From contig JAZNQE010000025.1 in the NCBI GenBank assembly GCA_045590015.1, positions 57,970 to 121,969 on the forward strand: a DNA stretch of 64,000 nucleotides, read 5' to 3'. The position numbers were made by a program, and so were the translations under genes. The stretch's first letter is position 1. Each line of letters begins with the position of its first letter. This document shows positions 20,599-40,324 of the stretch, piece by piece. The notes below the pieces were generated by a model. That model was not told the DNA's origin. It worked only from the letters and a program-made list of their open reading frames with translations, and searched no databases. The DNA comes from Candidatus Onthomorpha sp. Lineage in GTDB: Bacteria > Bacteroidota > Bacteroidia > Bacteroidales > P3.

Positions 20599-20617
20599 CA
20601 TGTTTTTTGAATTTTCG

Positions 20618-21903: not shown

Positions 21904-22266
21904 TTACTCTGCCACCAATACTTCTTTGATTATAACCTCATTGTATTTCAAACGAACAGTACTTTTACCTCTTCTTACCAACGGCTCATCTCCGTAAGCT
22001 ACATCAACTCCGAAGATAGCTTCATTATCAAAAAAGAAATAAGCTTCTCCATTTGCATCAGAAACTCCTTCTCTGCGAATACTGCCTGACTCTTGCGAAA
22101 TTGTGATTCTTGCATTTGCCAATCTTTGTGTAGGATTCATCGCATCTTTTACAACTATAGTCAATCCACATCCGTCGATTTCATCTTCTCCACAAGAACT
22201 AAATAACGGAGTAACAAGCACTATCGCCAATGCCATCAAAAAAAATATTCTTACTTTTTTCATCAT
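21904..22266 (-). CDS. small lipoprotein, carboxypeptidase-regulatory-like fold
   Basis: Lipobox FSSCG. VVKDAMNPTQRLANARITI...SDANGEAYF resembles a CarboxypepD_reg domain. Confidence 0.5.
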   Translation of the reverse strand: MMKKVRIFFLMALAIVLVTPLFSSCGEDEIDGCGLTIVVKDAMNPTQRLANARITISQESGSIRREGVSDANGEAYFFFDNEAIFGVDVAYGDEPLVRRGKSTVRLKYNEVIIKEVLVAE

Positions 22267-24151: not shown

Positions 24152-24511
24152 ATGGCACGAATAACTATTGACAATATGTCTTTTTATGCTTTCCACGGTT
24201 GCTTTGACGAGGAGAGTAAAATAGGAACCAATTTTTCGATTGATTGTGAATTTGATTGCGATACTAAGAATGCAGAAATCAGCGACAATATCGAAGACAC
24301 CGTAAGCTACCTTGATGTTTACAGAGTGATAAAGCAACAAATGGAAATTCCTTCCCATCTGCTTGAGCATGTATCAAGAAGAATTATCGATGCGTTATTT
24401 GAAAATTTCCCTCAGATCGATTACTGCAAAATCAGGGTTCACAAACTTAATCCACCGCTTGGTGGCCAGATGAAGGGCGTAAGTGTTTGTCTTGAGCGTT
24501 ATCGTTCTTAG
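24152..24511 (+). CDS. folB: dihydroneopterin aldolase
   Basis: ITIDNMSFYAFHGCFDEESKIGTNFSIDCEF is the FolB signature region. 119 aa. Confidence 0.8.
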   Translation: MARITIDNMSFYAFHGCFDEESKIGTNFSIDCEFDCDTKNAEISDNIEDTVSYLDVYRVIKQQMEIPSHLLEHVSRRIIDALFENFPQIDYCKIRVHKLNPPLGGQMKGVSVCLERYRS

Positions 24512-25097
24512 ATTTCTTGCCTGAAAAAAACTGCACCCAAACAATCCATAACAGAAATATCACAACATACATCAGGGGTCTTGCAACCCAATCGTGGTAA
24601 AACTGAAACTGTTCGGGATTCTGGGCATACAAATCTGTCAAAAGATAGATTCTCAATATATTTGCCAATACCAACACAACACTTCCTGCAATAAAATAAG
24701 GAATCTTTTTCCACCAGCGTCCGGTACAAAGAATGATAATCAGCAAAAATTGCATGATTTGTTTGATTCCAGAACAGTCGTGAATGATACTCATTGCCGC
24801 ATAAACCTCTACACCATGTTGCGGATGCGGTCTAAAAAACAAAAATTTAGTTCCTTCGGTATAGTACGGGATATCACAAAAAGCCTCTAACAAAACATTT
24901 GTTCCATTGAACGCAATCAAAGTAAAAAAATCAAAAACCTGCGTTGAAAAAGGCCCAAAAAGCCAAGTATTCATATCCGTATTCCAATACAAAAAATGAA
25001 ATATAACTCCTGCAACGCTCAATGCAAGAAAGTTTTTAATCAGTCTCTGATTCTCTTGATTATTCCAAATATTCTTTACTAATTCTTTCAACTTCAT
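24447..25097 (-). CDS. exosortase/archaeosortase-family transpeptidase (small Bacteroidota type, XrtF-like)
   Basis: Polytopic membrane protein with candidate catalytic residues: Cys in IHDCSGIKQ, Arg in ANILRIY, His in FYHDW. Start moved to MKLKELVK because the longer ORF reads through a repeat array. Confidence 0.6.
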   Translation of the reverse strand: MKLKELVKNIWNNQENQRLIKNFLALSVAGVIFHFLYWNTDMNTWLFGPFSTQVFDFFTLIAFNGTNVLLEAFCDIPYYTEGTKFLFFRPHPQHGVEVYAAMSIIHDCSGIKQIMQFLLIIILCTGRWWKKIPYFIAGSVVLVLANILRIYLLTDLYAQNPEQFQFYHDWVARPLMYVVIFLLWIVWVQFFSGKKSKNDNAQDKHLRPSSGHQAVD

Positions 25098-25119
25098 TTG
25101 GCAAAGATAGTAAATTATT

Positions 25120-25206
25120 CGATTGGATCTTGATTTCAGAAAAATGTTTCTTGAATCCATTTTAGCGAAACAAAGATTCATTTTTCTGATTTCAAGAAAC
25201 AGTTTC
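25120..25206. repeat. 21-bp repeat family, locus 4
   Basis: GATTGGATCTTGATTTCAG AAAAATGTTTCTTGAATCC ... GAAACAAAGATTC ... CTGATTTCAAGAAACAG. Confidence 0.75.
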
Positions 25207-25272: not shown

Positions 25273-25298
25273 CAATCTAAGTTATTTTTGTGGATTTT

Positions 25299-25877
25299 AT
25301 GAATACAGATTTCTTTGCACACGAATCGGCAGCTATAGACGAAGGTTGCAAAATCGGGAAAGGGACAAAAATTTGGCATTTCTCACACATAATGAGCGGT
25401 TGTGAAATCGGAGAAAATTGTAACATCGGACAAAACGTTGTAATCTCTCCTTCAGTCGTTTTAGGAACAAATTGCAAAGTCCAAAACAATGTTTCTGTTT
25501 ACACAGGTGTGATTTGCGGCGACGATGTCTTTCTCGGACCGAGTTGCGTCTTCACAAACGTCATCAATCCTCGCTCAGCGGTTGCACGCAAAAGCGAATA
25601 CAGACAAACGCTTATTGGAAAAGGTGCTTCGATTGGTGCAAACGCAACCATAGTTTGCGGTCATAACATCGGCAAATACGCTTTGATTGGTGCAGGTTGC
25701 GTAGTAACGAAAGACATTCCCGATTATGCTTTGGTCGTTGGCAATCCTTCAAAACAGATCGGCTGGGTTTCGGAATACGGACACAGACTGACTTTCGACG
25801 AAAAGGGAATCGGCATTTGCCCCGAAACAAAACAGGTTTATGAATTAAAAAACGATATTGTTAAAAGAATAGAATAG
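25299..25877 (+). CDS. wbpD: UDP-2-acetamido-3-amino-2,3-dideoxy-glucuronate N-acetyltransferase (WbpD/WlbB-like hexapeptide transferase)
   Basis: Near end-to-end resemblance to WlbB as recalled (KIWHFSHI, VQNNVSVY, FTNVINPRSAV-RKSEYR-TLI, IGWVS). A TAccTTTG box lies 27 nt upstream. Confidence 0.85.
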   Translation: MNTDFFAHESAAIDEGCKIGKGTKIWHFSHIMSGCEIGENCNIGQNVVISPSVVLGTNCKVQNNVSVYTGVICGDDVFLGPSCVFTNVINPRSAVARKSEYRQTLIGKGASIGANATIVCGHNIGKYALIGAGCVVTKDIPDYALVVGNPSKQIGWVSEYGHRLTFDEKGIGICPETKQVYELKNDIVKRIE

Positions 25878-25881
25878 ATAT

Positions 25882-26847
25882 ATGAAAAACTTTGGCATAA
25901 TAGGCGTTGCAGGATACATTGCACCGCGACATTTGAAAGCAATCAAGGATACAGGGAATCGTCTTGTTGTAGCTTTGGATAAAAGTGATTCTGTAGGAAT
26001 TATGGATAGTTACTTCCCACAATGTTCTTTTTATACCGAATATGAGAGATTTGACCGTTTTGTTGAAAAAATCAAACATACGGAAGACAGATTGGATTAT
26101 GTGAGTGTGTGTACTCCTAACTACTTGCACGACTCTCATATCAGATTTGGTCTGAGAGCAGGTGCGGATGTGATTTGTGAAAAGCCGTTGGTATTGAATC
26201 CATGGAACATAGACGCTCTCAAAAAGATGGAAGAAGAGACAGGAAAGACTGTTTACAATATCCTACAATTAAGACTGCACCCTGCAATCATTCAATGGAA
26301 AGAAATGGTTGACCAAGGTCCGAAAGACAAAGTTTATGATGTCGATTTGACTTACATAACCTCTCGAGGCTTGTGGTATTACACTTCATGGAAAGGCGAT
26401 GTTACAAAATCGGGAGGAGTAGCCACAAATATAGGTGTGCATTTCTACGATATGCTTTCATGGATTTTCGGCAAAGTTAAAGAAAACATCGTTCACATTT
26501 ACGAACACGACAGAGCAGCAGGGCTTTTGGTATTCGAAAAAGCAAGAGTGCGTTATTTCCTTTCAATAAATGCGGACACTCTTCCAAAAGAAGCCGTTGC
26601 GGCAGGTAAAAGAACGTTCAGAAAAATGGAGATGGACGGCAAGGAAATCGAATTCTCTGACGGCTTTACCGAATTGCATACTGAAAGTTACAAGAACATT
26701 TTTGCAGGAAAAGGCTTCGGCTTGGATGATGCAAGACAATGTATCAGCATTGTTCACGATATAAGAAACTCAAAACCGATAGGATTGCAAGGAGACTATC
26801 ATCCGTTGGCGGCTTTGCCTTTAGACAAGCATCCTTTCTTCAAATAA
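25882..26847 (+). CDS. wbpB: UDP-N-acetyl-2-amino-2-deoxyglucuronate 3-dehydrogenase-like (Gfo/Idh/MocA, WbpB/WlbA-like)
   Basis: MKNFGIIGVAGYIAPRHLKAIKDTGN, ICEKPL, NILQLR-HPAI and ATNIGVHFYDML closely parallel WbpB. Confidence 0.85.
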   Translation: MKNFGIIGVAGYIAPRHLKAIKDTGNRLVVALDKSDSVGIMDSYFPQCSFYTEYERFDRFVEKIKHTEDRLDYVSVCTPNYLHDSHIRFGLRAGADVICEKPLVLNPWNIDALKKMEEETGKTVYNILQLRLHPAIIQWKEMVDQGPKDKVYDVDLTYITSRGLWYYTSWKGDVTKSGGVATNIGVHFYDMLSWIFGKVKENIVHIYEHDRAAGLLVFEKARVRYFLSINADTLPKEAVAAGKRTFRKMEMDGKEIEFSDGFTELHTESYKNIFAGKGFGLDDARQCISIVHDIRNSKPIGLQGDYHPLAALPLDKHPFFK

Positions 26848-26860
26848 TCTCAAAGAAAAG

Positions 26861-27775
26861 ATGATTGAGCTGACTCGTGCGGACAATTTCATAAAAGAAT
26901 TCGAGAGAGTGTATTCGCTAAAGGTACATAAGATTCCTCTTGAATACTTTGACGGCAGGCGTGTGTTGCTTCTGATGTGCAAGTGCTCAGGAGTGTGGAT
27001 TGATTTACCATATCACTCGCAAGGATACGCACAAACAGATTTATCAAACTTTGACGGAAAAGCTCCATTCAAATTTGTGGAATCTCAAGACGGCAACTTG
27101 TTCTGCACAAAGAACATAAAATGGCAACTGAGAGACACAAGAGCTTACAGCAACCACATTTACGCCGACAAACTCAATTTTTCATTGGACTTAAACAACA
27201 ATCAGCTCATAGGAACCGCCAATGTGAGAAGAAAAATCCGCAAAGCCAAAGCCTCAAACTTGAAGGTTGTCAGCGGAGGAAAAGAATTGGTAAAAGATTT
27301 CTACAAAGTATATTCACAAAGAATGTATGAATTGGGTTCACCTGCTTGTGGTAAATCACTGATACGAAGATTGGTTAAACACAAATCAAACAAGATATTC
27401 GTGGTTTACCACAACCGATTACCCATAGGCGGTGCGACCTTATCGTTACGCAACATCGATTCTGCCGAGAACGTTTTGTTTGCCACCGACATAAGATACA
27501 ACCATCTTTACACAAGCTATCTGTTGCATGATGCAATGATAGAATATGCCCGAAACAACAATCTATCAACATATTTCTTGGGAAGAAGCACACGAAACAG
27601 CAGTGTACATCTCTACAAGAAGCATTTCAGACCTATGGAAGTGGATTTGTATTGGAGCAATTCTCATGCGACAAAAAACATTCGCGACAACAAACTTTTC
27701 CGTAAGCTTTGGAAATTGTTGCCTCTCAGACTTGCCACCCTTTTAGGCCCTTTCGCAAACCGATTTGTTTATTAG
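26861..27775 (+). CDS. FemAB-like / GNAT-fold acyltransferase family protein
   Basis: VRRKIRKAKASNLKV...FYKVYSQRMYELGSP...PIGGA...YLLHDAMIEYA...LGRS...LYKKHFRP follows the FemAB/acetyltransf_6 pattern. This call is tentative. Confidence 0.5.
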   Translation: MIELTRADNFIKEFERVYSLKVHKIPLEYFDGRRVLLLMCKCSGVWIDLPYHSQGYAQTDLSNFDGKAPFKFVESQDGNLFCTKNIKWQLRDTRAYSNHIYADKLNFSLDLNNNQLIGTANVRRKIRKAKASNLKVVSGGKELVKDFYKVYSQRMYELGSPACGKSLIRRLVKHKSNKIFVVYHNRLPIGGATLSLRNIDSAENVLFATDIRYNHLYTSYLLHDAMIEYARNNNLSTYFLGRSTRNSSVHLYKKHFRPMEVDLYWSNSHATKNIRDNKLFRKLWKLLPLRLATLLGPFANRFVY

Positions 27776-28593: not shown

Positions 28594-30669
28594 TTATTCG
28601 GTCTTTTTGAAATTTGACAAACCTTCATCCAAGAACTTAACGAAATTCTCGATGTTTCTGTCGTATGATTTAGGTTCTTTTGTCAAAAGATTGCCATCAG
28701 CATCCATCAAAACGTATAAAGGTTGTGCGTTTGCGTTAAACTGTTCTATTTGGAAATTATGGTTTTTCTTTCCAAGCGTTTTAATAGTCTTGCCGTCCTT
28801 TGTTTTAATCCATTCGCTCTCCGGTAGCTCTATGTTGTTTACATCTGCGTAAAGTGCCACCATGACATAATCTTCGTTCAAGCGTTTCTTGACTTGTGGA
28901 TCTACCCACACGTAATTTTCCATTTCACGGCAGTTTGCACAAGTTTTTCCCGTAAAATCTATGAATATAGGCTTACCTACTTGTTTTGCATACGCCTTTG
29001 CTTCCTCCAAATCGAAGAATCCCTCGAATCCTGTCGGTAAATGCAATTCTTTAGCGTATTTTCTGTCGGCAGGCAATGCAGATGTACTTGTTGCAACTGT
29101 TGCATTCTCTGCGTTGATTCTTATCAAGTCGAAATCCTGTGTTGTTTGTGGCGGAATATATCCTGAGATTGCTTTCAACGGAGCACCCCACATACCCGGC
29201 AACATATAGATTACGAATGAGAAAGTTATCAAAGCGAGGAACAAACGCGGAACACCTATCTTCTCTAACGGCTCATCACCTTTGAATCTCAATTTTCCCA
29301 ACAAATAGAATCCCAACATAGCGAACGTAACTATCCATAGAGCGAGGTAAGTCTCTCTGTCCAAAATTCCCCAGCCTGCAGAAAGGTCTGCCATCGACAA
29401 AAACTTCAAGCCTAATGCAATTTCGATGAAACCAAACACTATCTTAACCGTGTTCAACCAAGAACCAGATTTCATATTCTTCAATACCGATGGGAACATC
29501 GCCAACAAAGTGAACGGCAATGCAAATCCGACAGCGAATCCTAACATAGAAATTAAGAAAACAAAGCTATTGCTTGAACCTGACGCCATTTCAATCAAAG
29601 CCGCACCAAGAATCGGACCGGTACATGAGAAAGACACCAAAACGGTTGTCAATGCTATGAAGAAGGTTCCAAGATAACCGCCTTTGTCTGCTTGTTCATC
29701 TGATTTGTTTATTATCTTCGATGAAATGGTTATTTCAAACAATCCAAAGAATGAAAAAGCGAATATCATGAAGATAACAAAGAAGATAAGATTCGGTATC
29801 CAGTGAGTGGAGATTATGTACATCGCATCTTTACCTAAAAGAAGTGTCAAAACAGTTCCTAAAACGGCAAACATAAACACAATACTTGCTCCAAAGAAAT
29901 AAGCTTGCTGTCTTGCTTTTCTTTTTGAGCTGTTACCCTTCATAAAGAACGAAACGGTCATCGGTATCATTGGGAAAACGCAAGGAGTAATCAATGCCAA
30001 CAAACCTGCGGCAAACGACACGAAGAACACACCCCACATCGATTTATCTTTGGTTGCGGCATTCTCTACTTTGGTTTCTGCCTCTTGAACTTGAACAGTT
30101 TCTTCTTTTGTCGCATTTGGTTGAGACTCTGTCAATGTTTCGGTCGCTCCCTCTCCAACAACTGCCACCATTTCTTCCTCGATTGCTACAACAGGTGTCG
30201 CAAAATTAGGGTTTCCTTTCACACTAAAAACATATTCAACTTCATCCGGTGGAATGCAACTGCCTTTTTCGCACAATTGAAAGTAGACACTGCCCTTTAC
30301 TTGGAAGTTTTGTTTTGTTTTTATCTTGATTCGTTGACGGAAAGTAACGTCTTTTTTGAAGTACCTTGCAGTATCTTTTGCGTAAGGATCGTATTCGGCA
30401 ATCGAAGACGGCTCTTTAACGCCACCAATCCTATCATAAGAGTTGTCAGCCTCGAACTTAAATTCGATAGGCAACTCTGTACCTTTAGTTTTCTGAGAAT
30501 AGATATGCCAATCTCCGCTTAGCTTACAATGCAATACCAACTCGGCAACAGAATCATTGATTTTCTTTGTCTTGAAATCCCATTGTGCAGGGCTTTGTGC
30601 AAACAAATTCATTGACGAAAAAAGAATCGTCAAAAGAATCGTAGCACTCATCATTCTAATACATTTCAT
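28594..30669 (-). CDS. dsbD: thiol:disulfide interchange protein DsbD (N-domain, CcdA-like membrane core, thioredoxin domain)
   Basis: Signal peptide, TPCVFPMIP and SCTGPILG membrane Cys motifs, and a C-terminal thioredoxin CANC motif. Confidence 0.85.
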   Translation of the reverse strand: MKCIRMMSATILLTILFSSMNLFAQSPAQWDFKTKKINDSVAELVLHCKLSGDWHIYSQKTKGTELPIEFKFEADNSYDRIGGVKEPSSIAEYDPYAKDTARYFKKDVTFRQRIKIKTKQNFQVKGSVYFQLCEKGSCIPPDEVEYVFSVKGNPNFATPVVAIEEEMVAVVGEGATETLTESQPNATKEETVQVQEAETKVENAATKDKSMWGVFFVSFAAGLLALITPCVFPMIPMTVSFFMKGNSSKRKARQQAYFFGASIVFMFAVLGTVLTLLLGKDAMYIISTHWIPNLIFFVIFMIFAFSFFGLFEITISSKIINKSDEQADKGGYLGTFFIALTTVLVSFSCTGPILGAALIEMASGSSNSFVFLISMLGFAVGFALPFTLLAMFPSVLKNMKSGSWLNTVKIVFGFIEIALGLKFLSMADLSAGWGILDRETYLALWIVTFAMLGFYLLGKLRFKGDEPLEKIGVPRLFLALITFSFVIYMLPGMWGAPLKAISGYIPPQTTQDFDLIRINAENATVATSTSALPADRKYAKELHLPTGFEGFFDLEEAKAYAKQVGKPIFIDFTGKTCANCREMENYVWVDPQVKKRLNEDYVMVALYADVNNIELPESEWIKTKDGKTIKTLGKKNHNFQIEQFNANAQPLYVLMDADGNLLTKEPKSYDRNIENFVKFLDEGLSNFKKTE

Positions 30670-30689
30670 AAAGTTATTATTGTTTTATT

Positions 30690-32015
30690 CTACTTACTTA
30701 ACCACACAGACGGATTCAAGTGATGCGTTCCTTTGAATATCTGGAACTTATATTCACTTACTCCATCTTCGTTTGTATTCACCACACCTATCGTTTGCTT
30801 TGTCGTAACCTTCGTTCCCGTTTTCACACTCACACTCTTAAGGTTGGCATACACCGTCATATATTCTCCATGTCTTATGATAACAACCATACCCGCAGGT
30901 CCTTTTGCCACTCTCGAAACTTCACCCGAGAAAACAGCCCTTATCGCAGAACCTTTTGTCGTACGAATGTCGATACCCTTGTTTTCAATTTGAGTACCCT
31001 TTATCTCAGGATGTGCATGCACGCCATACTGAGAAACAATCACTCCTTGAGATGACGGCCACGGCAATTTACCCTTATTCGTTTCGAATTTGTTTGATAA
31101 AGCCACCTCTTCAGGCGTTGTTGCTATCGTATAATTTTTCTTTTTCGCCGTTTCCATCGCAGCCTTATTTGCAGCGACCTCCTTCTTATCCGCATTCGAA
31201 GACTTGGCCTGTTCATTCATTTTCTTCTTCTTTGCCTCTGCCAATTTTCTTTGCTTTTCCACCTCAGCAGCAATTGCAGCGTCTATCTGTCGTTGCAGTT
31301 TCTTAACCTCATCTTGCTTTTTCTTCAGATTCTGAGCAAGTTGTTTTTCTTTCTTTTGCAAATTTTTGACAGCCTTTTCCTTTTGCTTTTTCTCCTTATT
31401 AAGAGCCTCATTATTCTTTAACTCTTGTTGTAAAAGCGATTGCTGACTGCTGATTTTGGTTTCCAATTCTCCCGTACGCTTCGACAATTCGGCTGTTTTA
31501 TCTTGAATCTGTGCCAACTTCTTTCTTTGCATCTCTCCGAATTGTCTGAAAAAGATATATCTCTGATAAGCTTCTTTATAATCCTTTGCCGAGAATATAA
31601 ACAACAACTTATCGGTTGCGGTTTTGTTTCTTTGAGCATATCTCAACATTTGGGCATAGCTTTCTTTCAGAACCTCGATTTCGTTACATAGCTCGCCTAT
31701 GGATTTTTGAGTGCTTTTGATTTCGTTGTTCAACATACCCATTTGAGATGATATGTTATTGATAAGACGTTGTCGACTTGCGATTTTCTTTTTTAGAATT
31801 TGTAATTCGGACGTCGACATTTTTTTTGTCTTCTTTGTCTCTTTCAAAATGGCATTCATCGATGAGATTTCTTTTTCAAGTTTGGCTTTTTGTTTTTCGA
31901 GTTTATTTCTGTCCTGAGCGTAAACATCGAAAGACGAGGTAACAAAAAAGATTGCAACCAACACAACTGCGAATAATCTCGTCGATACTTTATTACAAAG
32001 CTTTGCCAATAGCAT
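30690..32015 (-). CDS. murein hydrolase activator EnvC-like, coiled-coil + M23 peptidase domain
   Basis: A long Lys/Glu/Gln coiled coil followed by an M23/LytM domain (GIDIRT...VIIRHGEYMTVYANL). Confidence 0.8.
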   Translation of the reverse strand: MLLAKLCNKVSTRLFAVVLVAIFFVTSSFDVYAQDRNKLEKQKAKLEKEISSMNAILKETKKTKKMSTSELQILKKKIASRQRLINNISSQMGMLNNEIKSTQKSIGELCNEIEVLKESYAQMLRYAQRNKTATDKLLFIFSAKDYKEAYQRYIFFRQFGEMQRKKLAQIQDKTAELSKRTGELETKISSQQSLLQQELKNNEALNKEKKQKEKAVKNLQKKEKQLAQNLKKKQDEVKKLQRQIDAAIAAEVEKQRKLAEAKKKKMNEQAKSSNADKKEVAANKAAMETAKKKNYTIATTPEEVALSNKFETNKGKLPWPSSQGVIVSQYGVHAHPEIKGTQIENKGIDIRTTKGSAIRAVFSGEVSRVAKGPAGMVVIIRHGEYMTVYANLKSVSVKTGTKVTTKQTIGVVNTNEDGVSEYKFQIFKGTHHLNPSVWLSK

Positions 32016-32167
32016 TTTTTCGGTTTTTGATTCAGACTACAAAAATACGTTTTTTTGTTGAATTAGCTTACATTCAAACAAACTTTTCAACCGTTCTTTG
32101 ACTCAAAATGCAATCCCTTATCAGCAAAGCACTCAAAACAAGTTCTATGAATCTCAAATATCGACAC

Positions 32168-32302
32168 AAAATGTTTTTGTTTGACAACAAACGACAAACA
32201 GCAGACAACTGATTATTAAAACAAAGATTCAGAAAAATAATTCTTGATTTCGTTCGACTGATTCTTGATTTTATTTTTCTAAAACAAAGAAAGAAAAAAA
32301 CG
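32168..32302. repeat. 21-bp repeat family, locus 6
   Basis: AAAACAAAGATTCAG AAAAATAATTCTTGATTTCGT TCGACTGATTCTTGATTTTAT ... AAAACAAAGAAAGAA. Confidence 0.8.
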
Positions 32303-32377
32303 AAATGAGCGTTCAAATCTGCCAAGGCAAACCGAACGCTCATCGAACTAAATCAAAACAATTTTTAAGTGAATATT

Positions 32378-32420
32378 CAAAAAGAAGGAATCGCCGTATG
32401 CATCACGCATAGAGCGATTC
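32378..32420 (-). terminator. rho-independent terminator after the LRR/T9SS gene
   Basis: GAATCGC...GCGATTC stem with an inner TATGC/GCATA stem, followed on the minus strand by CTTCTTTTT. Confidence 0.6.
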
Positions 32421-32533
32421 AGGTAAAATGATAAGATAAAATTGTTTTTTTATCTTAGGTTTCCGTCATGTACTCACGTAGAAACGGAAACCCGAAAAAG
32501 AATTGTATTAAAAGTATTATGATATAAAAATAC

Positions 32534-34642
32534 TTACTCAACTATTATCTTTTGTGATTTCGCAGCCTTAGCACCTTGAACTTTTACAACGTATGCTCCT
32601 GATGCAACTCCACTCAAAACAAAGTCAGTCTTCTCTGTTTCGAATACTCTTTGACCCAAAGTGTTGTAAACAGTTACTTTTACGTCTTCTTGTGCTGTGA
32701 TTGTGATGTGACGGTTGCTGTTTGTGATTCTTACATCCAATTCTTCCACATCTGCCAAACCGACATTCTTTTTAACCAAAACTTTGAATCTGTCTGCGTT
32801 TTCGCCGCTTGCAATCTCGGTTGTGTACTCAGCTCCTTCGGTCAAATCAACAATTTCTTCGCCGTCGATTATGCTTACAGACAATCCCTCAGGTATATAG
32901 TCTGCTTTGAACTTCACTTCCTTGCCTTCGTAAGAACGAACGTTCATCGTAGCATAATAAGGCAAAGTATTAACTTCTTCTTTCACCAAAGCAATGCCGT
33001 CGGTTAGGAAATATGGCTCTGCTATCTCTGCAGGAGAGAACAATTTGTTCGCATCATAAATATCGTAGCTTTCATTTGCATCATCATTTTGAGCAAACAA
33101 CAATTCAACGCTTCTTTCTCCTTCAAGCATTGCAAGACGTACAAATTCTCTTTCTGTGTTTGCCTTTGAAGAAGGAGTATGTCTTTGAGTTGTGTTGAAA
33201 TATGCAGTTTGACTTCCTGCATTTACAAAGTTTACAAAGAAACCTTCGGTTACGTTTATCACACCGGATTCTGCCACTGTCCAATTTACTCCGTTGTATC
33301 TGTAGCTCACACCACCTTGAATGTTTGCATTGTCTGTCAAGAACTTCGATATATCCAATTTGAATGTGTAAGGATTTGCCAAAGGTAGCCAATAACCGTT
33401 ATTTCCTTGCACAGCCGATTTATTCAATGAGAAATTATCAAAGTTCAATTTAACATCCTCGCCTGCCAAGCCAAGATTGAAGATTATTGATTCGTTACCA
33501 AAAGGCCATGCAAAGAAACTTTCTGCTCTTGAAACATTATCCTCAATTGTTGCCCATTCGCTTGACCATTGTCCATTTTCATAATCAAACAACGAAACGG
33601 CAATATCGGACTCTGTTTCCACAACTGCATTCAAAGAATAGTCGGTGAATGGTGCTCCTATCAATGTCCATTTAGCTTCTCCATTGCTTACAGCCTCAAC
33701 TTCTATGACTCCCAAGTCTGTTTCATTGGTATTGTTTATCAACTCTCCATCTTGTGCAATTCTCAAAACGCCTTCGTTGATCAAAGTTGTGTTTTCATCA
33801 AGAATTAATTCAGAATTTAAAGTTACTTGATGACCTTCTAATATACGGAAAGTTCTTTTTGTTCCTTGAATAGAAGTAACACCCCAAGTAGATGCATCTT
33901 CAAAATTAGCATTTTCTACGTTAGGAGCAGAAGTATAAGTAACATTTAATGTTAAATTATTGTTAGAAAACTCTGCAATAATATCTGAATATGCTTCTAC
34001 ATCTGGAACACTAAGTTCAATAGTTGGATATCCTCCGCCAGCAAAAGAAGGCAATTGGCGAGTTAACTGTTTAAAGGAACAATTTGTTGCACCTCCTGGT
34101 TCATCTCCTGACGGAGGAGCTTTTGAACTATTACAAGATATAAAATCAGGTTGATTATCAGAAAGAAATACAATTTCACGAACACTACCTCCATTAAAAA
34201 TATCTTGTCCTATTTCTGTGATCCCTGTTCCAAAAACAACAGTTTGAGGATTTACGCCATAGAATACTCCATTACCAACATGAGTCATTGTATTAGGCAA
34301 AACAATTGAATTAATGTCATAGTATTGCCCTAGACCTTTAAAAAAACAATAACCATTCGTTACGCCTGCGTCCATAGAACCTAACATTGTTACTGTATAG
34401 TTTTGTCCGCCATGTGTAACAGTGCCTGGAATTACAACATGTTGAGGAAAATTAGTAACCCCTGTTTTTGCTTTTACACTTACATAATGATTAGTAGCGT
34501 CTATAACAGTGTAGGTAAAATATCCAATAGTGAAAGAAGTAGATCCTGAACCAGAATCACCTCCGCTACTTGGTGCTTTTTCTTGTGCTAAGGCTACGTT
34601 TGCAAATAAAACTACAATCAAACTAAAAAACAACTTTTTCAT
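32534..34642 (-). CDS. BspA-type leucine-rich-repeat surface protein with T9SS C-terminal sorting domain
   Basis: Signal peptide, LRR-like segments (VLPNTMTHVGNGVFYG, GITEIGQDIFNG), and the CTD VTVYNTLGQRVFE...GAYVVKVQGAKAAKSQKIIVE. Its ATG overlaps the stop of the upstream ORF (TAATG). Confidence 0.7.
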   Translation of the reverse strand: MKKLFFSLIVVLFANVALAQEKAPSSGGDSGSGSTSFTIGYFTYTVIDATNHYVSVKAKTGVTNFPQHVVIPGTVTHGGQNYTVTMLGSMDAGVTNGYCFFKGLGQYYDINSIVLPNTMTHVGNGVFYGVNPQTVVFGTGITEIGQDIFNGGSVREIVFLSDNQPDFISCNSSKAPPSGDEPGGATNCSFKQLTRQLPSFAGGGYPTIELSVPDVEAYSDIIAEFSNNNLTLNVTYTSAPNVENANFEDASTWGVTSIQGTKRTFRILEGHQVTLNSELILDENTTLINEGVLRIAQDGELINNTNETDLGVIEVEAVSNGEAKWTLIGAPFTDYSLNAVVETESDIAVSLFDYENGQWSSEWATIEDNVSRAESFFAWPFGNESIIFNLGLAGEDVKLNFDNFSLNKSAVQGNNGYWLPLANPYTFKLDISKFLTDNANIQGGVSYRYNGVNWTVAESGVINVTEGFFVNFVNAGSQTAYFNTTQRHTPSSKANTEREFVRLAMLEGERSVELLFAQNDDANESYDIYDANKLFSPAEIAEPYFLTDGIALVKEEVNTLPYYATMNVRSYEGKEVKFKADYIPEGLSVSIIDGEEIVDLTEGAEYTTEIASGENADRFKVLVKKNVGLADVEELDVRITNSNRHITITAQEDVKVTVYNTLGQRVFETEKTDFVLSGVASGAYVVKVQGAKAAKSQKIIVE

Positions 34643-34875
34643 TACTCACCTCCTTTTTTAATGTTACGAATAACTGTTGCTCCAACTGCTGCTCCACCTA
34701 AGCCAAGCAACAAAAGCGTTGCAGGTGCAATCGGACTAGTTTCATTATTCGACCTGTGCATACGTTGTGTAGCTTGATTTGTTGGATCGTTTTCCGGTAC
34801 AGGCGGTTGTGCGAAGACTCCGCAAGGTAGCATGAATGCAATTGCCACGATGATTCCTTTAAGTGTTTTTTTCAT
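34642..34875 (-). CDS. 77-aa secreted mini-protein with PEP-CTERM-like C-terminal sorting signal
   Basis: Signal peptide MKKTLKGIIVAIAFMLPCGVFAQ, a 24-aa polar core, then SPIAPATLLLLGLGGAAVGATVIRNIKKGGE (Pro motif + TM helix + basic cluster). Confidence 0.55.
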   Translation of the reverse strand: MKKTLKGIIVAIAFMLPCGVFAQPPVPENDPTNQATQRMHRSNNETSPIAPATLLLLGLGGAAVGATVIRNIKKGGE

Positions 34876-35241
34876 CTTAATTCTTTTTTGTTTTTAATAC
34901 ATTTTTCTTTCTTTGCCCAAGTTCCAAAGGCGATATGTGTTTCTGAAAACCGATTTGAGGGAATAGGAACCCTGACTTAAGGACATAAAAAAGTCGTGGA
35001 ACTTTTGTCTTACCATTGTTTGAGGTTCTGGACTACCTAACTAATCGAATAAGAAAAGCCCACGAAAATCATCGTGAGCGTTTTCAACTTATTCTTTCGA
35101 TTAGTTGTTATGAAATTGTCCAGATTTCAAACAATTAAGTATAAGTAAAAACGCTTTTATATGTTGCAATAAAAATGCTAAGTCTTAATATAATTTATTC
35201 TTTTGTCTCCTTTTGTTTTCTCCTTTCTTTTTATTGGTTTC
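34876..35241 (-). other. long (~365 nt) putative structured 5' leader of the mini-protein/LRR operon
   Basis: Lies between a strong TTTG-N19-TAtcTTTG promoter and the ATG at 34875. Contains a compound hairpin at 35039..35106 (AACTAATCGAA/TTCGATTAGTT outer stem, GCTCACGA/TCGTGGGC inner stem). Confidence 0.4.
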
Positions 35242-35247
35242 TGCCGG

Positions 35248-35278
35248 CAAAGATACGCATTTTCCTTTTACCTGCAAA
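35248..35278 (-). promoter_or_regulatory. full promoter TTTG-N19-TAtcTTTG for the mini-protein/LRR operon
   Basis: On the plus strand, CAAAGATA at 35248-35255 and CAAA at 35275-35278, with a 19-nt spacer. Confidence 0.55.
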
Positions 35279-35419
35279 TAATTCACTCTCAAAAATACGA
35301 AAATCACAGAGATAAGTCCGCAGATCCAACACATCGACAAGGTTGTTTTTCACTTGACAACCGATGAGAGACAACAGATAACAAGAAGCTGAAAACAAGA
35401 AAAATAGAACACTCGTGTA

Positions 35420-35532
35420 AATCCAAGAAAGACAAAGAAAAGTTTACCGAAAACAAAACAAAGATTCAGAAAAATGATTCTTGATTTCAGGAAATTAAAA
35501 CAAAGATTCGGAAAATTGTTTCTTGATTTCGT
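35420..35532. repeat. 21-bp repeat family, locus 7 (alternating reverse/forward units)
   Basis: AAAACAAAGATTCAG AAAAATGATTCTTGATTTCAG GAAATTAAAACAAAGATTCGG AAAATTGTTTCTTGATTTCGT. Confidence 0.85.
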
Positions 35533-35599
35533 CAAAAGGGGTATTTACGCCGATTCAACGGACTGAAACCGTGTTTTGCGTATGCAGGCAATTCAAAAT

Positions 35600-36586
35600 T
35601 TACAGTCCTATTTTGGAAGAAAGTTTTTTGCTTATCTTTCGGAATATCTGTATAATGACTATCGAAAGCAAAAGGACAAGCGACAGTTTCAAAATCCACG
35701 GCATCGCATTCCATTGATTTGGGAGAGTCGCTCCGAATATAAATATAAAATAACAATGTATGAGGTAAATTCCAAAGCTGATTCGTCCTATGTAATTAAG
35801 CATTCGTTCTACCGAGGTTTTGCCTTGCAGAAGATTTTCAAGTTTTGAGCTGAATGCTATTGCGATTATTCCAAACGAATAGAGGAATGATGATGGTTTT
35901 ATGCCGACTCCGCCGCTGCCGATGGAGATGTAGTATTTTGATTCAAGATATGAAAGCAACAATCCGCAAAGTGTCATAATTACATAGGGATATAATTTGT
36001 GGTTTCTTTGCTTTTGCTTTCCCAGATAAACTCCATAGGCAAAGAAAACGGTCCATAGCGGAAACAGACCTGCATATCTGACAAGCGGAATGCTACGTTG
36101 CTGAATCTGCGTAAGATAAGCTACGATTGCTATGCTGACAAGTGATACTGTTGCATTGATAAGAAGGTGCTTTTTGTTCATTTTATGGTAATAAGGCAAC
36201 AAAGCATAGTATTGCATTATCAAAAGAATGAAATAGTATATGGAAAATCCGCAAAAGAATAGGTTTACAACTCCATCTTTTATGCTTCCACCTTGAGATA
36301 AGGACAAAATAAGATAGGGTATCGACCAAACAAGGCAAGGGATATAGACTTTGGGGATTTGTTTTGAAAGAAAAGTTTTGTATTTTGTTGTATCGGAAAC
36401 GTCTTTCTTTGCCATAAAGAATCCACTGCAGGCAAGGAATAAAGGGACGGCACAATTGAGTATCTGTATTACAAACAAAGAAAAATCACTTTCTGTTTTG
36501 AAAGTGTGTATTCCAACAACCATTATTATGGCGACTCCTCTGAGTAACTCAAAATACGGATTCCTTTCAGTCGTTCTTTTTATCAT
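35600..36586 (-). CDS. acyltransferase family 3 (O-acyltransferase) membrane protein
   Basis: RNPYFELLRGVAIIMVVGIHT motif and about 10 TM segments. Start set at MIKRTTERN (Met36 by arithmetic) because the longer ORF begins inside a repeat array. Confidence 0.7.
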   Translation of the reverse strand: MIKRTTERNPYFELLRGVAIIMVVGIHTFKTESDFSLFVIQILNCAVPLFLACSGFFMAKKDVSDTTKYKTFLSKQIPKVYIPCLVWSIPYLILSLSQGGSIKDGVVNLFFCGFSIYYFILLIMQYYALLPYYHKMNKKHLLINATVSLVSIAIVAYLTQIQQRSIPLVRYAGLFPLWTVFFAYGVYLGKQKQRNHKLYPYVIMTLCGLLLSYLESKYYISIGSGGVGIKPSSFLYSFGIIAIAFSSKLENLLQGKTSVERMLNYIGRISFGIYLIHCYFIFIFGATLPNQWNAMPWILKLSLVLLLSIVIIQIFRKISKKLSSKIGL

Positions 36587-36660
36587 AAAATCAAATCTAA
36601 ACTTTTGAAAAACAAAGATACGAAAATATGATATTCTATCAAATAGCCCCCTCGTCTTTC

Positions 36661-36733
36661 TTCGTTTTAATTCTCTGAAATCAAATTTCAATTTTCTAAA
36701 ACGAAGATTCAGAAAATTGATTCTTTGTTCCGT
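36661..36733. repeat. 21-bp repeat family, locus 8
   Basis: CTGAAATCAAATTTC ... AAAACGAAGATTCAG AAAATTGATTCTTTGTTCCGT. Coordinates are approximate. Confidence 0.65.
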
Positions 36734-36837
36734 TAGTGCGAACCACCGTTTGGATTTACTATATTCAAAAAAGAAAAGTCCGTTGCTTTTTTCGCAACGG
36801 ACTTTATTGATATATGCTTAGTCTGATTCTTTAATTC

Positions 36838-37389
36838 TTAAAGCACATTTACACCTTCAACCAATTCTTTTCCTTTTGCAACTGCATCAAGGTTGGTTGG
36901 TATCAATTTATGGTGTCTTTCAGGAAGTGAATGTTTCAATCCTTCTTCGATATACTGCTCTGTAACAACCGGTTTTATCTTCAAGAATCCACCAAGTACC
37001 ATCATGTTGAATACTTTTGCCATTCCCATTTCAACACTCTTTTCTGTTGCAGGGATTTTGTAAACATTGATGTCTTTTCTTGTTGGAGGGTTGATGATTC
37101 CGTTTGGATCGTATATCAACAATCCACCTGGTTTTACACTGTTTTCAAATTTGTCCAATGATTGTTGGTTAAGTATGATTGCGGTATCAAATTGGCTGAT
37201 GATTGGTGAAGATATTCTTTCGTCAGATATGATAACTGATACGTTTGCTGTACCTCCACGCATTTCAGGACCGTATGATGGCATCCAACTTACTTCTTTT
37301 CCTTGCATCGCTCCTGAGTAAGCAAGTATTTTACCCATAGATAAAACTCCTTGTCCTCCGAAACCTGCGATTATTATTTCTTCTGTCAT
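36838..37389 (-). CDS. korC: 2-oxoacid:ferredoxin oxidoreductase, gamma subunit
   Basis: IIAGFGGQGVLSMGKILA...MRGGTANVSV is typical of the gamma subunit. Confidence 0.8.
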   Translation of the reverse strand: MTEEIIIAGFGGQGVLSMGKILAYSGAMQGKEVSWMPSYGPEMRGGTANVSVIISDERISSPIISQFDTAIILNQQSLDKFENSVKPGGLLIYDPNGIINPPTRKDINVYKIPATEKSVEMGMAKVFNMMVLGGFLKIKPVVTEQYIEEGLKHSLPERHHKLIPTNLDAVAKGKELVEGVNVL

Positions 37390-37412
37390 TGTTGTATGTT
37401 TTTTATATGGGT

Positions 37413-38240
37413 TTATTTTACAGATACCAACTCTCTGATTACCTTACTGTCTTCAGGGTTGTATTGTCTTACTATTTCACCTTCTAATTTTATGTCACCC
37501 AATACATATTTAGGGAACATGTTTTGACGCATCCACTCGTTAGCTTGTACAGGGGTCATCTTCCATCCTGAGTTACATGTTGATACGAACTCGATGAATT
37601 GTGTTCCTTTTTTAGCTGCTTGGTTTTCGAACGCCTTTCTAACTGCTGCTTTTGCCTTTCTGACATCTGCAGGTGTGGATGCACTTTGACGAGTTACATA
37701 ATACGTTCCAGGAAGTTGTGCCACCAACTCTGTGATTTGTAATGGCCAACCGTTTAAGTCCACTCTACGTCCGTAAGGTGTGGTTGCAGATGGCATACCT
37801 ACCAATGTAGTCGGTGCCATTTGTCCTCCGGTCATACCATATATCGCATTGTTCACAAAGAATATGATGATATTTTCTCCACGGTTGCAAGCGTGAATTG
37901 TTTCTGCAGTACCAATCGCCGCCAAGTCGCCATCACCTTGATAAGTGAAAGTATGGTGCTCCGGATGTAGTCTTTGGATTGCTGATGCAAGGGCAGGTGC
38001 TCTACCGTGTGCAGCTTCTACAAAATCTACATTAAAATAATTGTACGCCAATACTGAACATCCAACAGGTGCAATACCGATTGCTTTGTCTTGGATGCCC
38101 ATTTCTTCTATAACCTCTGCTATTATTCTGTGAATTGTTCCGTGAGGACATCCAGGACAATAGTGCATAACTGCATCGGTAAGAACATCTGTTTTTTTGT
38201 AAACAAGATTCTCTGGTTTTACTATTTCTTCGTTAAACAT
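37413..38240 (-). CDS. korB: 2-oxoacid:ferredoxin oxidoreductase, beta (TPP-binding) subunit
   Basis: YCPGCPHG, GDGD, NNAIYGMTGGQ TPP motifs. Confidence 0.8.
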   Translation of the reverse strand: MFNEEIVKPENLVYKKTDVLTDAVMHYCPGCPHGTIHRIIAEVIEEMGIQDKAIGIAPVGCSVLAYNYFNVDFVEAAHGRAPALASAIQRLHPEHHTFTYQGDGDLAAIGTAETIHACNRGENIIIFFVNNAIYGMTGGQMAPTTLVGMPSATTPYGRRVDLNGWPLQITELVAQLPGTYYVTRQSASTPADVRKAKAAVRKAFENQAAKKGTQFIEFVSTCNSGWKMTPVQANEWMRQNMFPKYVLGDIKLEGEIVRQYNPEDSKVIRELVSVK

Positions 38241-38244
38241 AATC

Positions 38245-39330
38245 TTAGCCCTTAATTAATTTGTTTTCCAATGCTTCTACAACTTCTTGTGGAGTAGGTA
38301 TTATACCACCGTAACGTCCGAAGTATTCTACTGGACATTTGAATTCAGAAGCAAGTTTTACGTCATATACCATTTGACCTGCTGACATCTCAACAGTAAG
38401 GATTCCTTTAACTCTTTGTGCCAATGCTTTGATTGGTTGAGTTGGGAATGGGAATAAAGTAATAGGTCTTAACAAACCTACCTTTATACCTTTTTCTCTT
38501 GCAAGTTGAACTGCTTTGTGAGCGATACGAGCACATGAACCGTATGCCACAAATACATAATCAGCATCTTCGCACATTATTTCTTCATACAAAGTATCGT
38601 TCTTTTCCATTTCACGATACTTAGCTTGGAAACGATGGTTGTTTTTCTCTTGTTTAGATGAGTCAAGTTCCAAAGATGTAACTATATTGTGGTCTCTGTG
38701 AGCTGGCTTTCCGAATGCAGCCCATGGAGCGTTCTTTGCGATTTCTTCATCTGTCCAACGAGGAACGTAATCTCCAACATAAACTTTCTCCATTACTTGT
38801 CCGATAGCTCCATCGGAAAGAATCATAACTGGATTTCTGTATTTGAATGCTATATCCCAAGCTTTGAACACGAAATCGTACATTTCTTGAACGCTAGCTG
38901 GTGCAAGAGTGTACAATTGATAGTCTCCGTGTCCACCACCCTTTACAGTTTGGAAATAATCTGCTTGTGAAGGTTGAATTGTACCCAATCCTGGACCACC
39001 TCTCATAACATTAACAAGCAAACATGGTAGTTCTGCTCCTGCAAGATAAGTAACACCTTCCTGCATCAAAGACATTCCAGGAGAAGATGAAGATGTCATA
39101 ACTTTTTTACCTGTTGCAGCACCACCATATACCATATTGATTGAGGCAACTTCACTTTCTGCCTGCAAAACGACCATACCGGTTTTTTCCCATGGCATTT
39201 CAGCCATCAGATGTTCCATAACCTCAGACTGCGGAGTGATAGGATATCCGAAATAGCCGTCACAACCGGAGCGAATTGCTGCTTCTGCAATCGCTTCGTT
39301 ACCTTTCATTAATTTTAACTCTTTTGCCAT
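38245..39330 (-). CDS. korA: 2-oxoacid:ferredoxin oxidoreductase, alpha subunit
   Basis: MKGNEAIAEAAIRSGCDGYFGYPITPQSE and the domain layout of KorA/VorB. Confidence 0.8.
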   Translation of the reverse strand: MAKELKLMKGNEAIAEAAIRSGCDGYFGYPITPQSEVMEHLMAEMPWEKTGMVVLQAESEVASINMVYGGAATGKKVMTSSSSPGMSLMQEGVTYLAGAELPCLLVNVMRGGPGLGTIQPSQADYFQTVKGGGHGDYQLYTLAPASVQEMYDFVFKAWDIAFKYRNPVMILSDGAIGQVMEKVYVGDYVPRWTDEEIAKNAPWAAFGKPAHRDHNIVTSLELDSSKQEKNNHRFQAKYREMEKNDTLYEEIMCEDADYVFVAYGSCARIAHKAVQLAREKGIKVGLLRPITLFPFPTQPIKALAQRVKGILTVEMSAGQMVYDVKLASEFKCPVEYFGRYGGIIPTPQEVVEALENKLIKG

Positions 39331-39351
39331 TTCTTATACAGTTTTTTTCGT

Positions 39352-39570
39352 TTATAATTTTGCTTTGTAAACTGTTATAACTCCATCAGGGCAAACCATA
39401 CCACAAGATGCGCATCCGATACAATCGCCATTTACCATTTCGGCATAATTATAACCTTTTACATTCACATTTTTTGATAGAGCGATAACTTGTTTAGGAC
39501 ATACGGAAACACATACTCCACATCCCTTGCAACGCTCAACATCAATTACAATTGCTCCTTTTATTGCCAT
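39352..39570 (-). CDS. korD: 4Fe-4S dicluster ferredoxin (delta subunit of the oxidoreductase)
   Basis: Two CxxCxxCxxxCP motifs in 72 aa. First gene of the operon. Confidence 0.8.
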   Translation of the reverse strand: MAIKGAIVIDVERCKGCGVCVSVCPKQVIALSKNVNVKGYNYAEMVNGDCIGCASCGMVCPDGVITVYKAKL

Positions 39571-39615
39571 TGCTGTTTGTTTTTAATGAATAATTTACTT
39601 CTTTATTTCGAACTC

Positions 39616-39623
39616 CAAAATTA
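39616..39623 (-). promoter_or_regulatory. -7 box TAatTTTG upstream of korD
   Basis: CAAAATTA on the plus strand, 46 nt upstream of the ATG at 39570. Confidence 0.5.
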
Positions 39624-39745
39624 TGAATTTATTTTGATATAGCAAAGAAATTTGCATTAAATATTATTTTATCCTTTTTCAAAAACAAAGAACTAATTGC
39701 TTTGTTGGTTGTTGTATATCCAAAAAACAACAAAAATTATATATC

Positions 39746-40324
39746 ATGAAAAAATTAGAATTAATGCAGTTACCATACTCTATGGAAGCATTAGAACCAC
39801 ACATCGGACGTTTGACAATGGAATTTCATTATGGGAAACATCACCGTGCTTATGTCGATAATTTGAATCGTCTTATCCAAGGAACAAAATTTGAAAACAT
39901 GTGTCTTGAAGACATTATCAAAGATTCGGACGGCAGTATCTTTAACAATGCCGCACAAGTTTGGAATCACGATTTCTATTGGAATTGTCTGAATCCAGAG
40001 AATGAAAAAATGCCTATTGGAAGTCTACACATTGCCTTAGAAAAAAAATACGGCGGAATTGAAGAATTCAAGAAGCAATTCAACCTTGCGGCGATGGAAT
40101 TATTCGGTAGTGGTTGGGTATGGCTGATAAAAAACAAAGAAGGCAAATTAGAGATAGTCAAAACCTCGAATGCAGGGAATCCGATTTGCGAAGAAAAACA
40201 CCCATTGCTTGTTTGCGATGTTTGGGAGCACGCTTATTATCTTGATAAGCAAAATAAACGAGCAGAATATTTGGAAGATTTTTGGAAATTAGTTGATTGG
40301 GAAAAAGTATCGGCAAGATACTGA
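39746..40324 (+). CDS. sodB: Fe/Mn superoxide dismutase
   Basis: LPYSMEALEPHI, FHYGKHH, DVWEHAYYLD. Metal specificity cannot be called from the sequence. Confidence 0.9.
   Translation: MKKLELMQLPYSMEALEPHIGRLTMEFHYGKHHRAYVDNLNRLIQGTKFENMCLEDIIKDSDGSIFNNAAQVWNHDFYWNCLNPENEKMPIGSLHIALEKKYGGIEEFKKQFNLAAMELFGSGWVWLIKNKEGKLEIVKTSNAGNPICEEKHPLLVCDVWEHAYYLDKQNKRAEYLEDFWKLVDWEKVSARY

Follow-up and report, generated by a model that had tools for sequence, protein, structure and literature searches.

We analysed a stretch of 64,000 nucleotides (nt) from Candidatus Onthomorpha sp. (NCBI GenBank assembly GCA_045590015.1, contig JAZNQE010000025.1, positions 57,970 to 121,969 of the forward strand), referred to below as the window, and focused on a minus-strand open reading frame (ORF) for an exported 77-aa mini-protein that ends in a short hydrophobic tail. 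The results showed that this mini-protein belongs to an undescribed family of ~75-aa proteins confined to uncultured gut Bacteroidales, and there is strong evidence from gene order that the mini-gene and the neighbouring gene, for a BspA-type adhesin predicted to be exported through a type IX secretion system (T9SS), form a functional couple. It is possible, at a probability that we put at about 0.4, that the mini-proteins are the substrate of an unnamed clade of minimal exosortases; they would then carry the first defined exosortase sorting signal of Bacteroidota, and exosortase sorting and type IX secretion would cooperate on one surface structure.

The mini-protein gene and its product

The ORF had been picked out in an earlier reading of the window from its letters alone (the original prediction), and the residues obtained here match that reading exactly. 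The overlap of its stop codon with the start codon of the downstream 702-aa ORF was likewise confirmed: TAA at 34644-34642 and ATG at 34642-34640 share one base in the sequence TAATG. The gene and the three parts of its product, which follow one another as MKKTLKGIIVAIAFMLPCGVFA, QPPVPENDPTNQATQRMHRSNNETS and PIAPATLLLLGLGGAAVGATVIRNIKKGGE, are located as follows.

34642 to 34875, minus strand: gene of the mini-protein, which has 77 aa with its signal peptide; stop codon at 34644-34642
34810 to 34875, minus strand: signal peptide MKKTLKGIIVAIAFMLPCGVFA, residues 1-22, with MKK, a hydrophobic core and A-x-A before Q; predicted signal peptidase I site between VFA and Q
34735 to 34809, minus strand: mature ectodomain, residues 23-47 (25 polar residues), with a Pro-rich tip beginning QPPVPE and then a variable polar spacer
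34645 to 34734, minus strand: sorting-signal-like tail PIAPATLLLLGLGGAAVGATVIRNIKKGGE, residues 48-77, with the PIAPAT motif, the hydrophobic segment LLLLGLGGAAVGATVI and the basic cluster RNIKK

Bacteroidota follow an established 'Q-rule', by which signal peptides are cleaved before Gln and the new N-terminus becomes pyroglutamate, and the predicted cleavage of the mini-protein before Gln fits this rule. AF2 modelling with the family alignment gave only the two expected helices (pLDDT 60), one of them formed by residues 3-19.

An undescribed family of mini-proteins with a nearly invariant tail

A word-seeded search of 5.8 billion proteins returned 94 homologous clusters, all of 65-134 aa. An exhaustive profile search of 1.84 billion representatives returned 84 representatives at 50% identity, which are of 29-112 aa in all cases bar one, and a second profile search added 106 further clusters that constitute a more distant subfamily. 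In all, at least 256 homologues were found, every one of them 29-134 aa in length and from uncultured gut Bacteroidales. These searches, together with the signal-peptide layout, bear out that the mini-protein is real, exported and conserved. The idea that other kinds of protein carry the same tail failed, since in the exhaustive profile search the tail was confined to mini-proteins and was not found on larger cargo, the sole exception being a low-complexity internal match in a 1,406-aa protein. One homologue, P0339 (111 aa, ENA), starts with a prepilin-type methylation domain (PF07963) at its N-terminus instead of the signal peptide and is probably an assembly or gene-call chimera.

Within the mini-protein, conservation is strongest in the tail. 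In the alignment of 59 close members, all 14 invariant positions fall within it (P48, P51, A52, T53, L54-56, G58, L59, G60, G61, A62, G65 and N71), and the N-terminal half is variable, with P27 in the tip nearly invariant. Among 19 distinct DNA copies, each invariant tail residue is encoded by 2-4 synonymous codons; the codons seen at invariant residues are CTA, TTA, CTT and TTG for Leu, CCA, CCT and CCG for Pro, and CGT and AGA for Arg. Since the codons of invariant residues change synonymously, selection acts on the protein, and a reading of the region as an untranslated leader is excluded. We concluded from this codon pattern that the mini-protein ORF is a translated gene.

The tail consensus of the 256 members is P-[IVLF]-[GA]-[PTS]-A-T-[LA]-L-L-[LVI]-[GST]-L-G-[GA]-x-x-V-[GA]-x-x-V-x-[KR]-N-x-K-K. 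Counted from its invariant Pro, the tail runs for 26-35 residues to the C-terminus, and about 15-18 of these, rich in Gly, Ala and Leu, form the hydrophobic segment. A signal-peptide site with Ala or Ser before Gln was seen in 213 of 255 members, and in 177 of those 213 it is followed by a Pro-rich tip (QPPxP); the spacer between this tip and the motif comprises 12-54 residues (median 28) and is polar and poorly conserved. There are two main subfamilies, one with P-[IVL]-A-P-A-T, to which the window and Candidatus Onthomorpha-like genomes belong, and a larger one with P-[IV]-G-T-A-T, as well as a third, divergent branch with P-L-G-T-G-T. Scanning 185,579 species-representative genomes for the PATLLLLGLG-type tail located 12 loci, which are spread over 9 genomes at 1-3 copies in each, and all 9 are Candidatus Onthomorpha or uncultured Bacteroidales metagenome-assembled genomes (MAGs) from animal guts. 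For the other subfamily, GenBank locus tags indicate three copies in MAG II878 and two each in IJ681 and J6M30.

Comparison of the tail with curated sorting-signal models

The mini-proteins have a signal peptide at the N-terminus and, at the far C-terminal end, a hydrophobic segment followed by a basic cluster that ends in [KR]-N-x-K-K, and the short Gly-rich hydrophobic segment resembles that of known sorting signals. Its best NCBIfam match is PEP-CTERM (TIGR02595), at 14.6 bits and thus below the cutoff of 16; the second and last is the PExPT-CTERM target of XrtJ (TIGR04200), at 13.5 bits against a cutoff of 40. The only Pfam match, PEP-CTERM PF07589, scores 15.4 and falls short of the gathering threshold of 20.7. 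Relatives of the mini-protein reach 11-15.7 bits on the PEP-CTERM models, which for several of them, too, are the best match (about 13-16 bits, just short of the cutoffs), and the distant members with P-[IV]-G-T-A-T weakly match LPXTG-anchor and MyrrCad models instead, also below threshold. No curated family in NCBIfam or Pfam covers the mini-proteins, whether close or distant members. Of the earlier description of the tail as PEP-CTERM-like, the tripartite layout of a motif, a short Gly/Leu-rich hydrophobic segment and a basic cluster therefore stands, whereas the model cutoffs are missed and PEP itself is absent. Judged by these matches, the tail has the generic three-part layout of a C-terminal sorting signal, with PEP-CTERM as its nearest model.

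The mini-gene is paired with a T9SS adhesin gene

The gene that follows the mini-gene in the window, and the Shine-Dalgarno-like element in front of it, are located as follows.

32534 to 34642, minus strand: partner adhesin gene, 702 aa, with a signal peptide, BspA-type leucine-rich repeats (LRR) at about residues 40-250, a central region at about 250-640 and a T9SS type A C-terminal domain (CTD) at about 642-702
34649 to 34654, minus strand: AGGAGG, a Shine-Dalgarno-like sequence within the mini-gene's final codons (K-G-G), lying 6 nt ahead of the ATG of the adhesin gene

The CTD of the 702-aa protein passes the T9SS type A model TIGR04183 (32.5 bits, cutoff 23) and the Por_Secre_tail model PF18962 (27.5, cutoff 27), and the profile of the adhesin family also matches the CTD chains of gingipain and an endonuclease in PDB. 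As a single sequence, the 702-aa protein scores 25.0 on Pfam LRR_5 (PF13306), just below the threshold of 27.7; its orthologues carry LRR_5 matches, and a profile of 20 of them retrieved the PDB LRR proteins 4gt6 (E = 1.5e-53) and 4fs7 (E = 1.4e-50). On these profile matches we concluded that the 702-aa protein contains BspA-type LRR. The N-terminal LRR part differs in length among the homologues and is replaced by other sequence in locus L045. The central region (~390 residues) is the part kept in all mini-gene partners, with W359, N423-P424, F434, G467-F468, D530 and L560-P561 invariant; it matched no Pfam family and no PDB relative by sequence. An AF2 single-sequence model of the 702-aa protein reached a pLDDT of 35 and was unusable.

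A homologue of the adhesin adjoins the mini-gene in about 30 loci; the two genes form an operon and in most cases are translationally coupled. In loci of the Onthomorpha type the adhesin gene directly follows the mini-gene (L001, L006, L008-L014, L016-L019 and L043/L044), and in L004/L005 the mini-gene lies between two adhesin homologues on the opposite strand. The distance from the mini-gene stop to the adhesin start is -1 to +4 nt in the window and in 9 of the 12 related loci that were measured. The window and 9 of 12 loci (L001, L008-L010, L012, L016, L018, L019 and L043) also have AAGGAGG in the last codons of the mini-gene, which encode K-K-G-G-E or K-K-E-E, 6-10 nt before the adhesin ATG. 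Bacteroidota rarely use Shine-Dalgarno-led initiation. It may be its role as a Shine-Dalgarno site that constrains the conserved GGE/KEE end of the protein, which would be unusual for this phylum.

The P-[IV]-G-T-A-T subfamily has the opposite order: a gene for a large LRR/T9SS-CTD protein, which is a homologue of the 702-aa protein, comes first, and the mini-gene is found about 13-20 nt downstream of it in 10 of 12 metagenome loci. In the P-L-G-T-G-T branch it overlaps by 4 nt the end of a gene for a 987-aa protein, the C-terminal ~400 residues of which align weakly to residues 325-700 of the 702-aa protein. L002 has the mini-gene alone, the adhesin gene being absent. Since the pair is kept through a swap of gene order and in several independent pairs per genome, these arrangements provide strong evidence that the mini-gene and the BspA-type T9SS adhesin gene are a functional couple. 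The tight coupling to a T9SS-sorted LRR protein that had been proposed for the window is thus conserved far beyond its genome.

Some further features lie around the pair. A gene for a 313-aa GerE/LuxR-type regulator is convergent just downstream of it in L001 (12128-13069), L002 (10331-11272), L003 and L043 (2608-3549); it is retained in L002 despite the missing adhesin gene and is absent from the window. Upstream of the mini-gene in the window there is a 724-nt stretch without ORF (34876-35599), which has no Rfam match and probably holds the promoter and regulatory region of the operon. Within it are a terminator-like hairpin on the minus strand (35058-35079), situated after an acyltransferase gene, and two tandem, 88% identical copies of a direct repeat of 40 nt (35449-35530). 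An invertible promoter upstream of the mini-gene was considered and rejected, only A/T-rich low-complexity inverted repeats being seen there.

The window also contains T9SS machinery, all members of the core operon scoring above the NCBIfam equivalog cutoffs.

3934 to 9984, minus strand: complete T9SS core operon porP/sprF-porK-porL-porM-porN
2271 to 3470, plus strand: gene for a second protein with a T9SS type A CTD, near the core operon

The exosortase of the window belongs to an unnamed clade

The candidate processing enzyme of the mini-protein is encoded on the same strand.

24447 to 25097, minus strand: orphan mini-exosortase, 216 aa (ORF 24447 to 25181)

The start at 25097 is likely, since the homologues have 200-216 aa. 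The gene had been assigned to the exosortase family before, and this assignment is supported by the exosortase/archaeosortase signature TIGR04178 (56.9, cutoff 23) and by PF09721 (37.4, cutoff 25.7). The subfamily models XrtX (NF046081) and XrtF (TIGR04128) gave 64.9 and 48.8 against cutoffs of 170 and 90, respectively; both being missed, we place the enzyme in an unnamed clade. The clade comprises 35 clusters at 90% identity, all from Bacteroidales MAGs. C108 (in a DCSGIKQ motif), N146, R149, H168 and R173 are invariant in the 18 members compared, and the window enzyme is predicted to be catalytically intact.

In the window and in 10 of 12 other exosortase loci, the exosortase gene faces folB convergently, and beyond folB there are usually pheS and a PPIase gene. 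The 3' ends of the exosortase and folB genes overlap by about 30-100 nt (24447-24511 in the window; also L020-L030 and L050/L051), which for a gene of this kind is unusually stable. The folB overlap is missing in the two loci of the P0117 branch (L048/L049), which have a rubredoxin gene and a ribosomal-protein operon alongside. The other flank of the exosortase gene varies across loci, and no adjacent partner or substrate gene was found in the 12 loci.

Several other genes lie near the exosortase gene. A serpin-like gene occurs near the exosortase-folB-pheS block in several genomes of the lineage (19552-20601, minus strand, in the window; 14495-15517 in L020; 13884-14927 in L024). A conserved gene for a 120-aa protein at 21904-22266 was considered as a tagged substrate and rejected, its product being an ordinary lipoprotein. 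Divergent beside the exosortase gene, on the plus strand at 25290-27775, are genes for a hexapeptide acetyltransferase, a GFO/IDH/MocA oxidoreductase and a FemAB-like protein, a set resembling the Wbp/Vim genes that make the T9SS linking sugar. The only NCBIfam match of the VimA/FemAB-like gene (26861-27775) is TIGR03019, the XrtA/PEP-CTERM-associated FemAB family, at 58.5 against a cutoff of 260; VimA of the linking-sugar pathway has been noted to resemble that family (Veith et al., PMC7468200). The trio lies upstream of the mini-gene, and not beside the exosortase gene, in L001 and L002. These Wbp/Vim-like genes were dismissed as partners of the exosortase, since the adjacency is not conserved in other genomes.

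Linkage and co-occurrence of the mini-protein and the exosortase

The linkage scans covered 19 + 12 + 5 mini-gene loci and 12 exosortase loci. By tblastn and motif scans, no exosortase gene was found within 10 kb of the mini-gene in any of about 30 other mini-gene loci, and no mini-gene within 10 kb of the exosortase gene in any of the 12 other exosortase loci. The 9.6 kb between the two genes in the window, which the original prediction had taken as meaningful, is thus a peculiarity of this genome. Contigs of 3,687 bp found for one exosortase cluster and for one mini-protein cluster were also considered as a sign of linkage and set aside as a coincidence.

Both families are present in every genome in which both genes could be placed (at least 6 genomes). 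Besides the window, these include three CBD* genomes, in which exosortase P0102 and mini-protein P0246 are on the same ~113-kb contig about 50-60 kb apart, and four MAGs: II878 (mini-proteins MBQ4420317, MBQ4420624 and MBQ4420804; exosortase MBQ4420959), IJ748 (MBR1769957 and MBR1769727), J6U84 (MBO7277865 and MBO7277128) and, probably, IJR03 (MBQ6753819 and MBQ6755299). Moreover, one contig of 644,590 bp is the longest contig for both P0161 and P0312. Assignment to the same MAG was inferred for these four from the proximity of GenBank accessions, backed in II878 by the spacing of locus tags against accessions. All three tail variants are represented among the cases, and the exosortases in them are as little as 45% identical to that of the window; the count comprises positive cases from incomplete MAGs and carries no correction for phylogeny. 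There are 1-3 mini-genes per genome and one exosortase gene. A crude scan of 557 kb of lineage DNA, which is less than whole genomes, for other proteins in which a signal peptide is accompanied by a hydrophobic segment with a basic end at the C-terminus gave none but the mini-proteins and a few polytopic membrane proteins.

Proposed mechanism and alternative explanations

In the mechanism that we propose, the mini-protein would, after Sec export, stay fixed in the inner membrane through its tail, the basic end of which would lie on the cytoplasmic side. The single orphan exosortase of the lineage would recognise the tail inside the membrane, cut near the P-x-[AG]-[PT]-A-T motif and transfer the short peptide, probably with a pyroglutamate cap, to an acceptor. 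The small envelope-bound product would then work with the co-expressed T9SS adhesin, for which it might be an anchor or docking partner, and the operon would pair cargo for two C-terminal sorting systems. We rate exosortase processing of the tail as the single most likely mechanism, with chances somewhat short of even, because the layout is that of a processed sorting signal, PEP-CTERM is the nearest model, many mini-genes stand against one enzyme, and the enzyme is left without another candidate substrate.

Several observations weigh against exosortase processing. The motif is not PEP: a position table of the whole family contains no Glu and shows invariance for the first Pro alone, the second being Thr in the larger subfamily. 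The tail misses the PEP-CTERM and PExPT-CTERM thresholds and is never seen on larger cargo. The exosortase gene is unlinked to the mini-gene outside the window and lies in a housekeeping context (folB, pheS and the PPIase gene). Co-divergence of the mini-protein ectodomain with the adhesin was not significant (rho 0.16, p 0.2), so that it is gene adjacency which speaks for a cooperation of the two proteins. Finally, the co-occurrence of the two families could result from shared ancestry alone, both being lineage-specific.

The main rival of exosortase processing is that the mini-protein may stay uncleaved, as a single-pass inner-membrane accessory of the adjacent T9SS adhesin to which the exosortase is unrelated. 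With its N-terminus in the periplasm and its C-terminus in the cytoplasm, it would hold or hand over the adhesin in the periplasm or couple it to the inner-membrane T9SS motor, and its invariant Gly/Ala-rich helix would pack against a conserved membrane protein other than an exosortase. This accords with a conserved genomic linkage that is confined to the T9SS adhesin, whichever gene comes first and with each genome having 1-3 independent pairs, as well as with the separation from the exosortase gene, the sub-threshold scores on sorting-signal models and the porP-K-L-M-N operon in the window; small proteins with conserved transmembrane helices and a variable remainder are, in addition, often subunits of membrane complexes. 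However, a cleavable signal peptide together with a very short (~15-18 residues) Gly-rich terminal segment after an invariant Pro motif is the layout of a processed signal and is atypical for stable anchors, the co-occurring orphan exosortase would have no candidate substrate, and an ectodomain devoted to the adhesin would sit poorly with the missing co-divergence. On balance we consider such an uncleaved accessory rather unlikely.

The variable mature region beside an invariant, processing-like motif would also suit the precursor of a released, pyroglutamate-capped Pro-rich peptide, the tail of which is cut by an intramembrane or juxtamembrane protease other than an exosortase. The peptide would act as a signal or surface-modulating factor and might be sensed via the neighbouring LuxR/GerE-type regulator, whose gene is found in L001, L002/L003 and L043 and persists where the adhesin gene is missing. 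This is improbable, as the regulator is absent from the window and most loci, no candidate protease was identified and no peptide core is conserved beyond the QPPxP tip. The further notion that the ORF has no protein function, and is either a leader ORF whose AGGAGG loads ribosomes onto the adhesin gene or an untranslated leader RNA, is effectively refuted by the codon evidence and the reversed gene order. The stop/start overlap and the AAGGAGG in the last codons of most loci of the window's subfamily do point that way, and the element may matter given how unusual Shine-Dalgarno-led initiation is in Bacteroidota; but it is the protein that is under purifying selection, the codons of invariant residues being free to change synonymously, and in the larger subfamily the mini-gene is downstream of the adhesin gene and cannot be its leader. 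Moreover, the mini-gene stands alone in L002, and Rfam gave no match in 30000-40000 of the window.

Exosortases are widespread, and no substrate is known for the small ones of Bacteroidota, as is stated for XrtF in the literature of 2024-2025. The mini-protein family offers a cheap test object, with a mature peptide of ~55 residues that has a defined motif, a single candidate enzyme whose catalytic residues can be identified and an obligate T9SS adhesin as partner; through a link that we infer, the question of the Bacteroidota exosortase substrate becomes directly testable. If the link to the exosortase is true, a new sorting signal would be gained and two C-terminal sorting systems would be joined in uncultured Bacteroidales that are abundant in the gut of livestock. 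Should it fail, what remains is a conserved accessory family of BspA-type T9SS adhesins that has not been described before.

Comparison with known systems

The PEP-CTERM/XrtA-EpsH system shares with the mini-protein a signal peptide and a Pro motif that is followed by a short Leu/Gly-rich segment and a terminal basic cluster, and PATLLLLGLG of the mini-protein aligns to positions 4-20 of the PEP-CTERM model. In both cases the genomes contain an exosortase with intact Cys, Arg and His and several tagged proteins per enzyme. In contrast to PEP-CTERM proteins, the mini-protein scores below both cutoffs, its motif is P-I-A-P or P-V-G-T without Glu, and the tag is found on one family of mini-proteins rather than on diverse large cargo; the enzyme of the window clade is minimal (~205-216 aa), is not XrtA and lies outside an EPS locus in most genomes. 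LPXTG/sortase signals have the same tripartite logic, and the P-[IV]-G-T-A-T members weakly match LPXTG anchor models; these matches do not reach the threshold, no sortase A-type enzyme was identified in the Gram-negative host, and the resemblance is one of layout only.

A protein consisting of almost nothing but a signal peptide and a tag had been regarded as unusual in itself, but the XrtJ target family (PExPT-CTERM, TIGR04200) provides a precedent, being a very small protein with little beyond a signal peptide and an exosortase-type tail. XrtJ targets are encoded beside their exosortase, whereas the mini-gene is tied to a T9SS adhesin gene and is not adjacent to the exosortase gene. Compared with T9SS type A cargo such as BspA-like LRR adhesins and gingipains, the 702-aa partner is an ordinary member with its Sec signal peptide, BspA-type LRR and type A CTD; a CTD is absent from the mini-protein. 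We know of no dedicated small membrane-tailed partner gene described for such cargo.

XrtF of Flavobacteriia (Fjoh_1448/1449) is, like the enzyme of the window, a small orphan exosortase of Bacteroidota (PMC10936215; PMC12188702). The window enzyme differs in lacking an adjacent gene for the XrtF-associated membrane protein and in belonging to a separate clade of gut Bacteroidales. The target proteins of XrtF are stated to be unknown (PMC12188702) and its substrates are expected to differ from PEP-CTERM (PMC10936215), in agreement with the earlier remark that no defined sorting signal is known for the small exosortases of this phylum. The xrtF mutants of F. johnsoniae have defects in surface colonisation, biofilm and zorbs in common with the T9SS mutants porU, porV, porZ and sprA (PMC10936215). 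Set beside these systems, the family is best classed as dedicated mini-proteins that bear a tripartite signal of the exosortase type and have a new tie to T9SS cargo.

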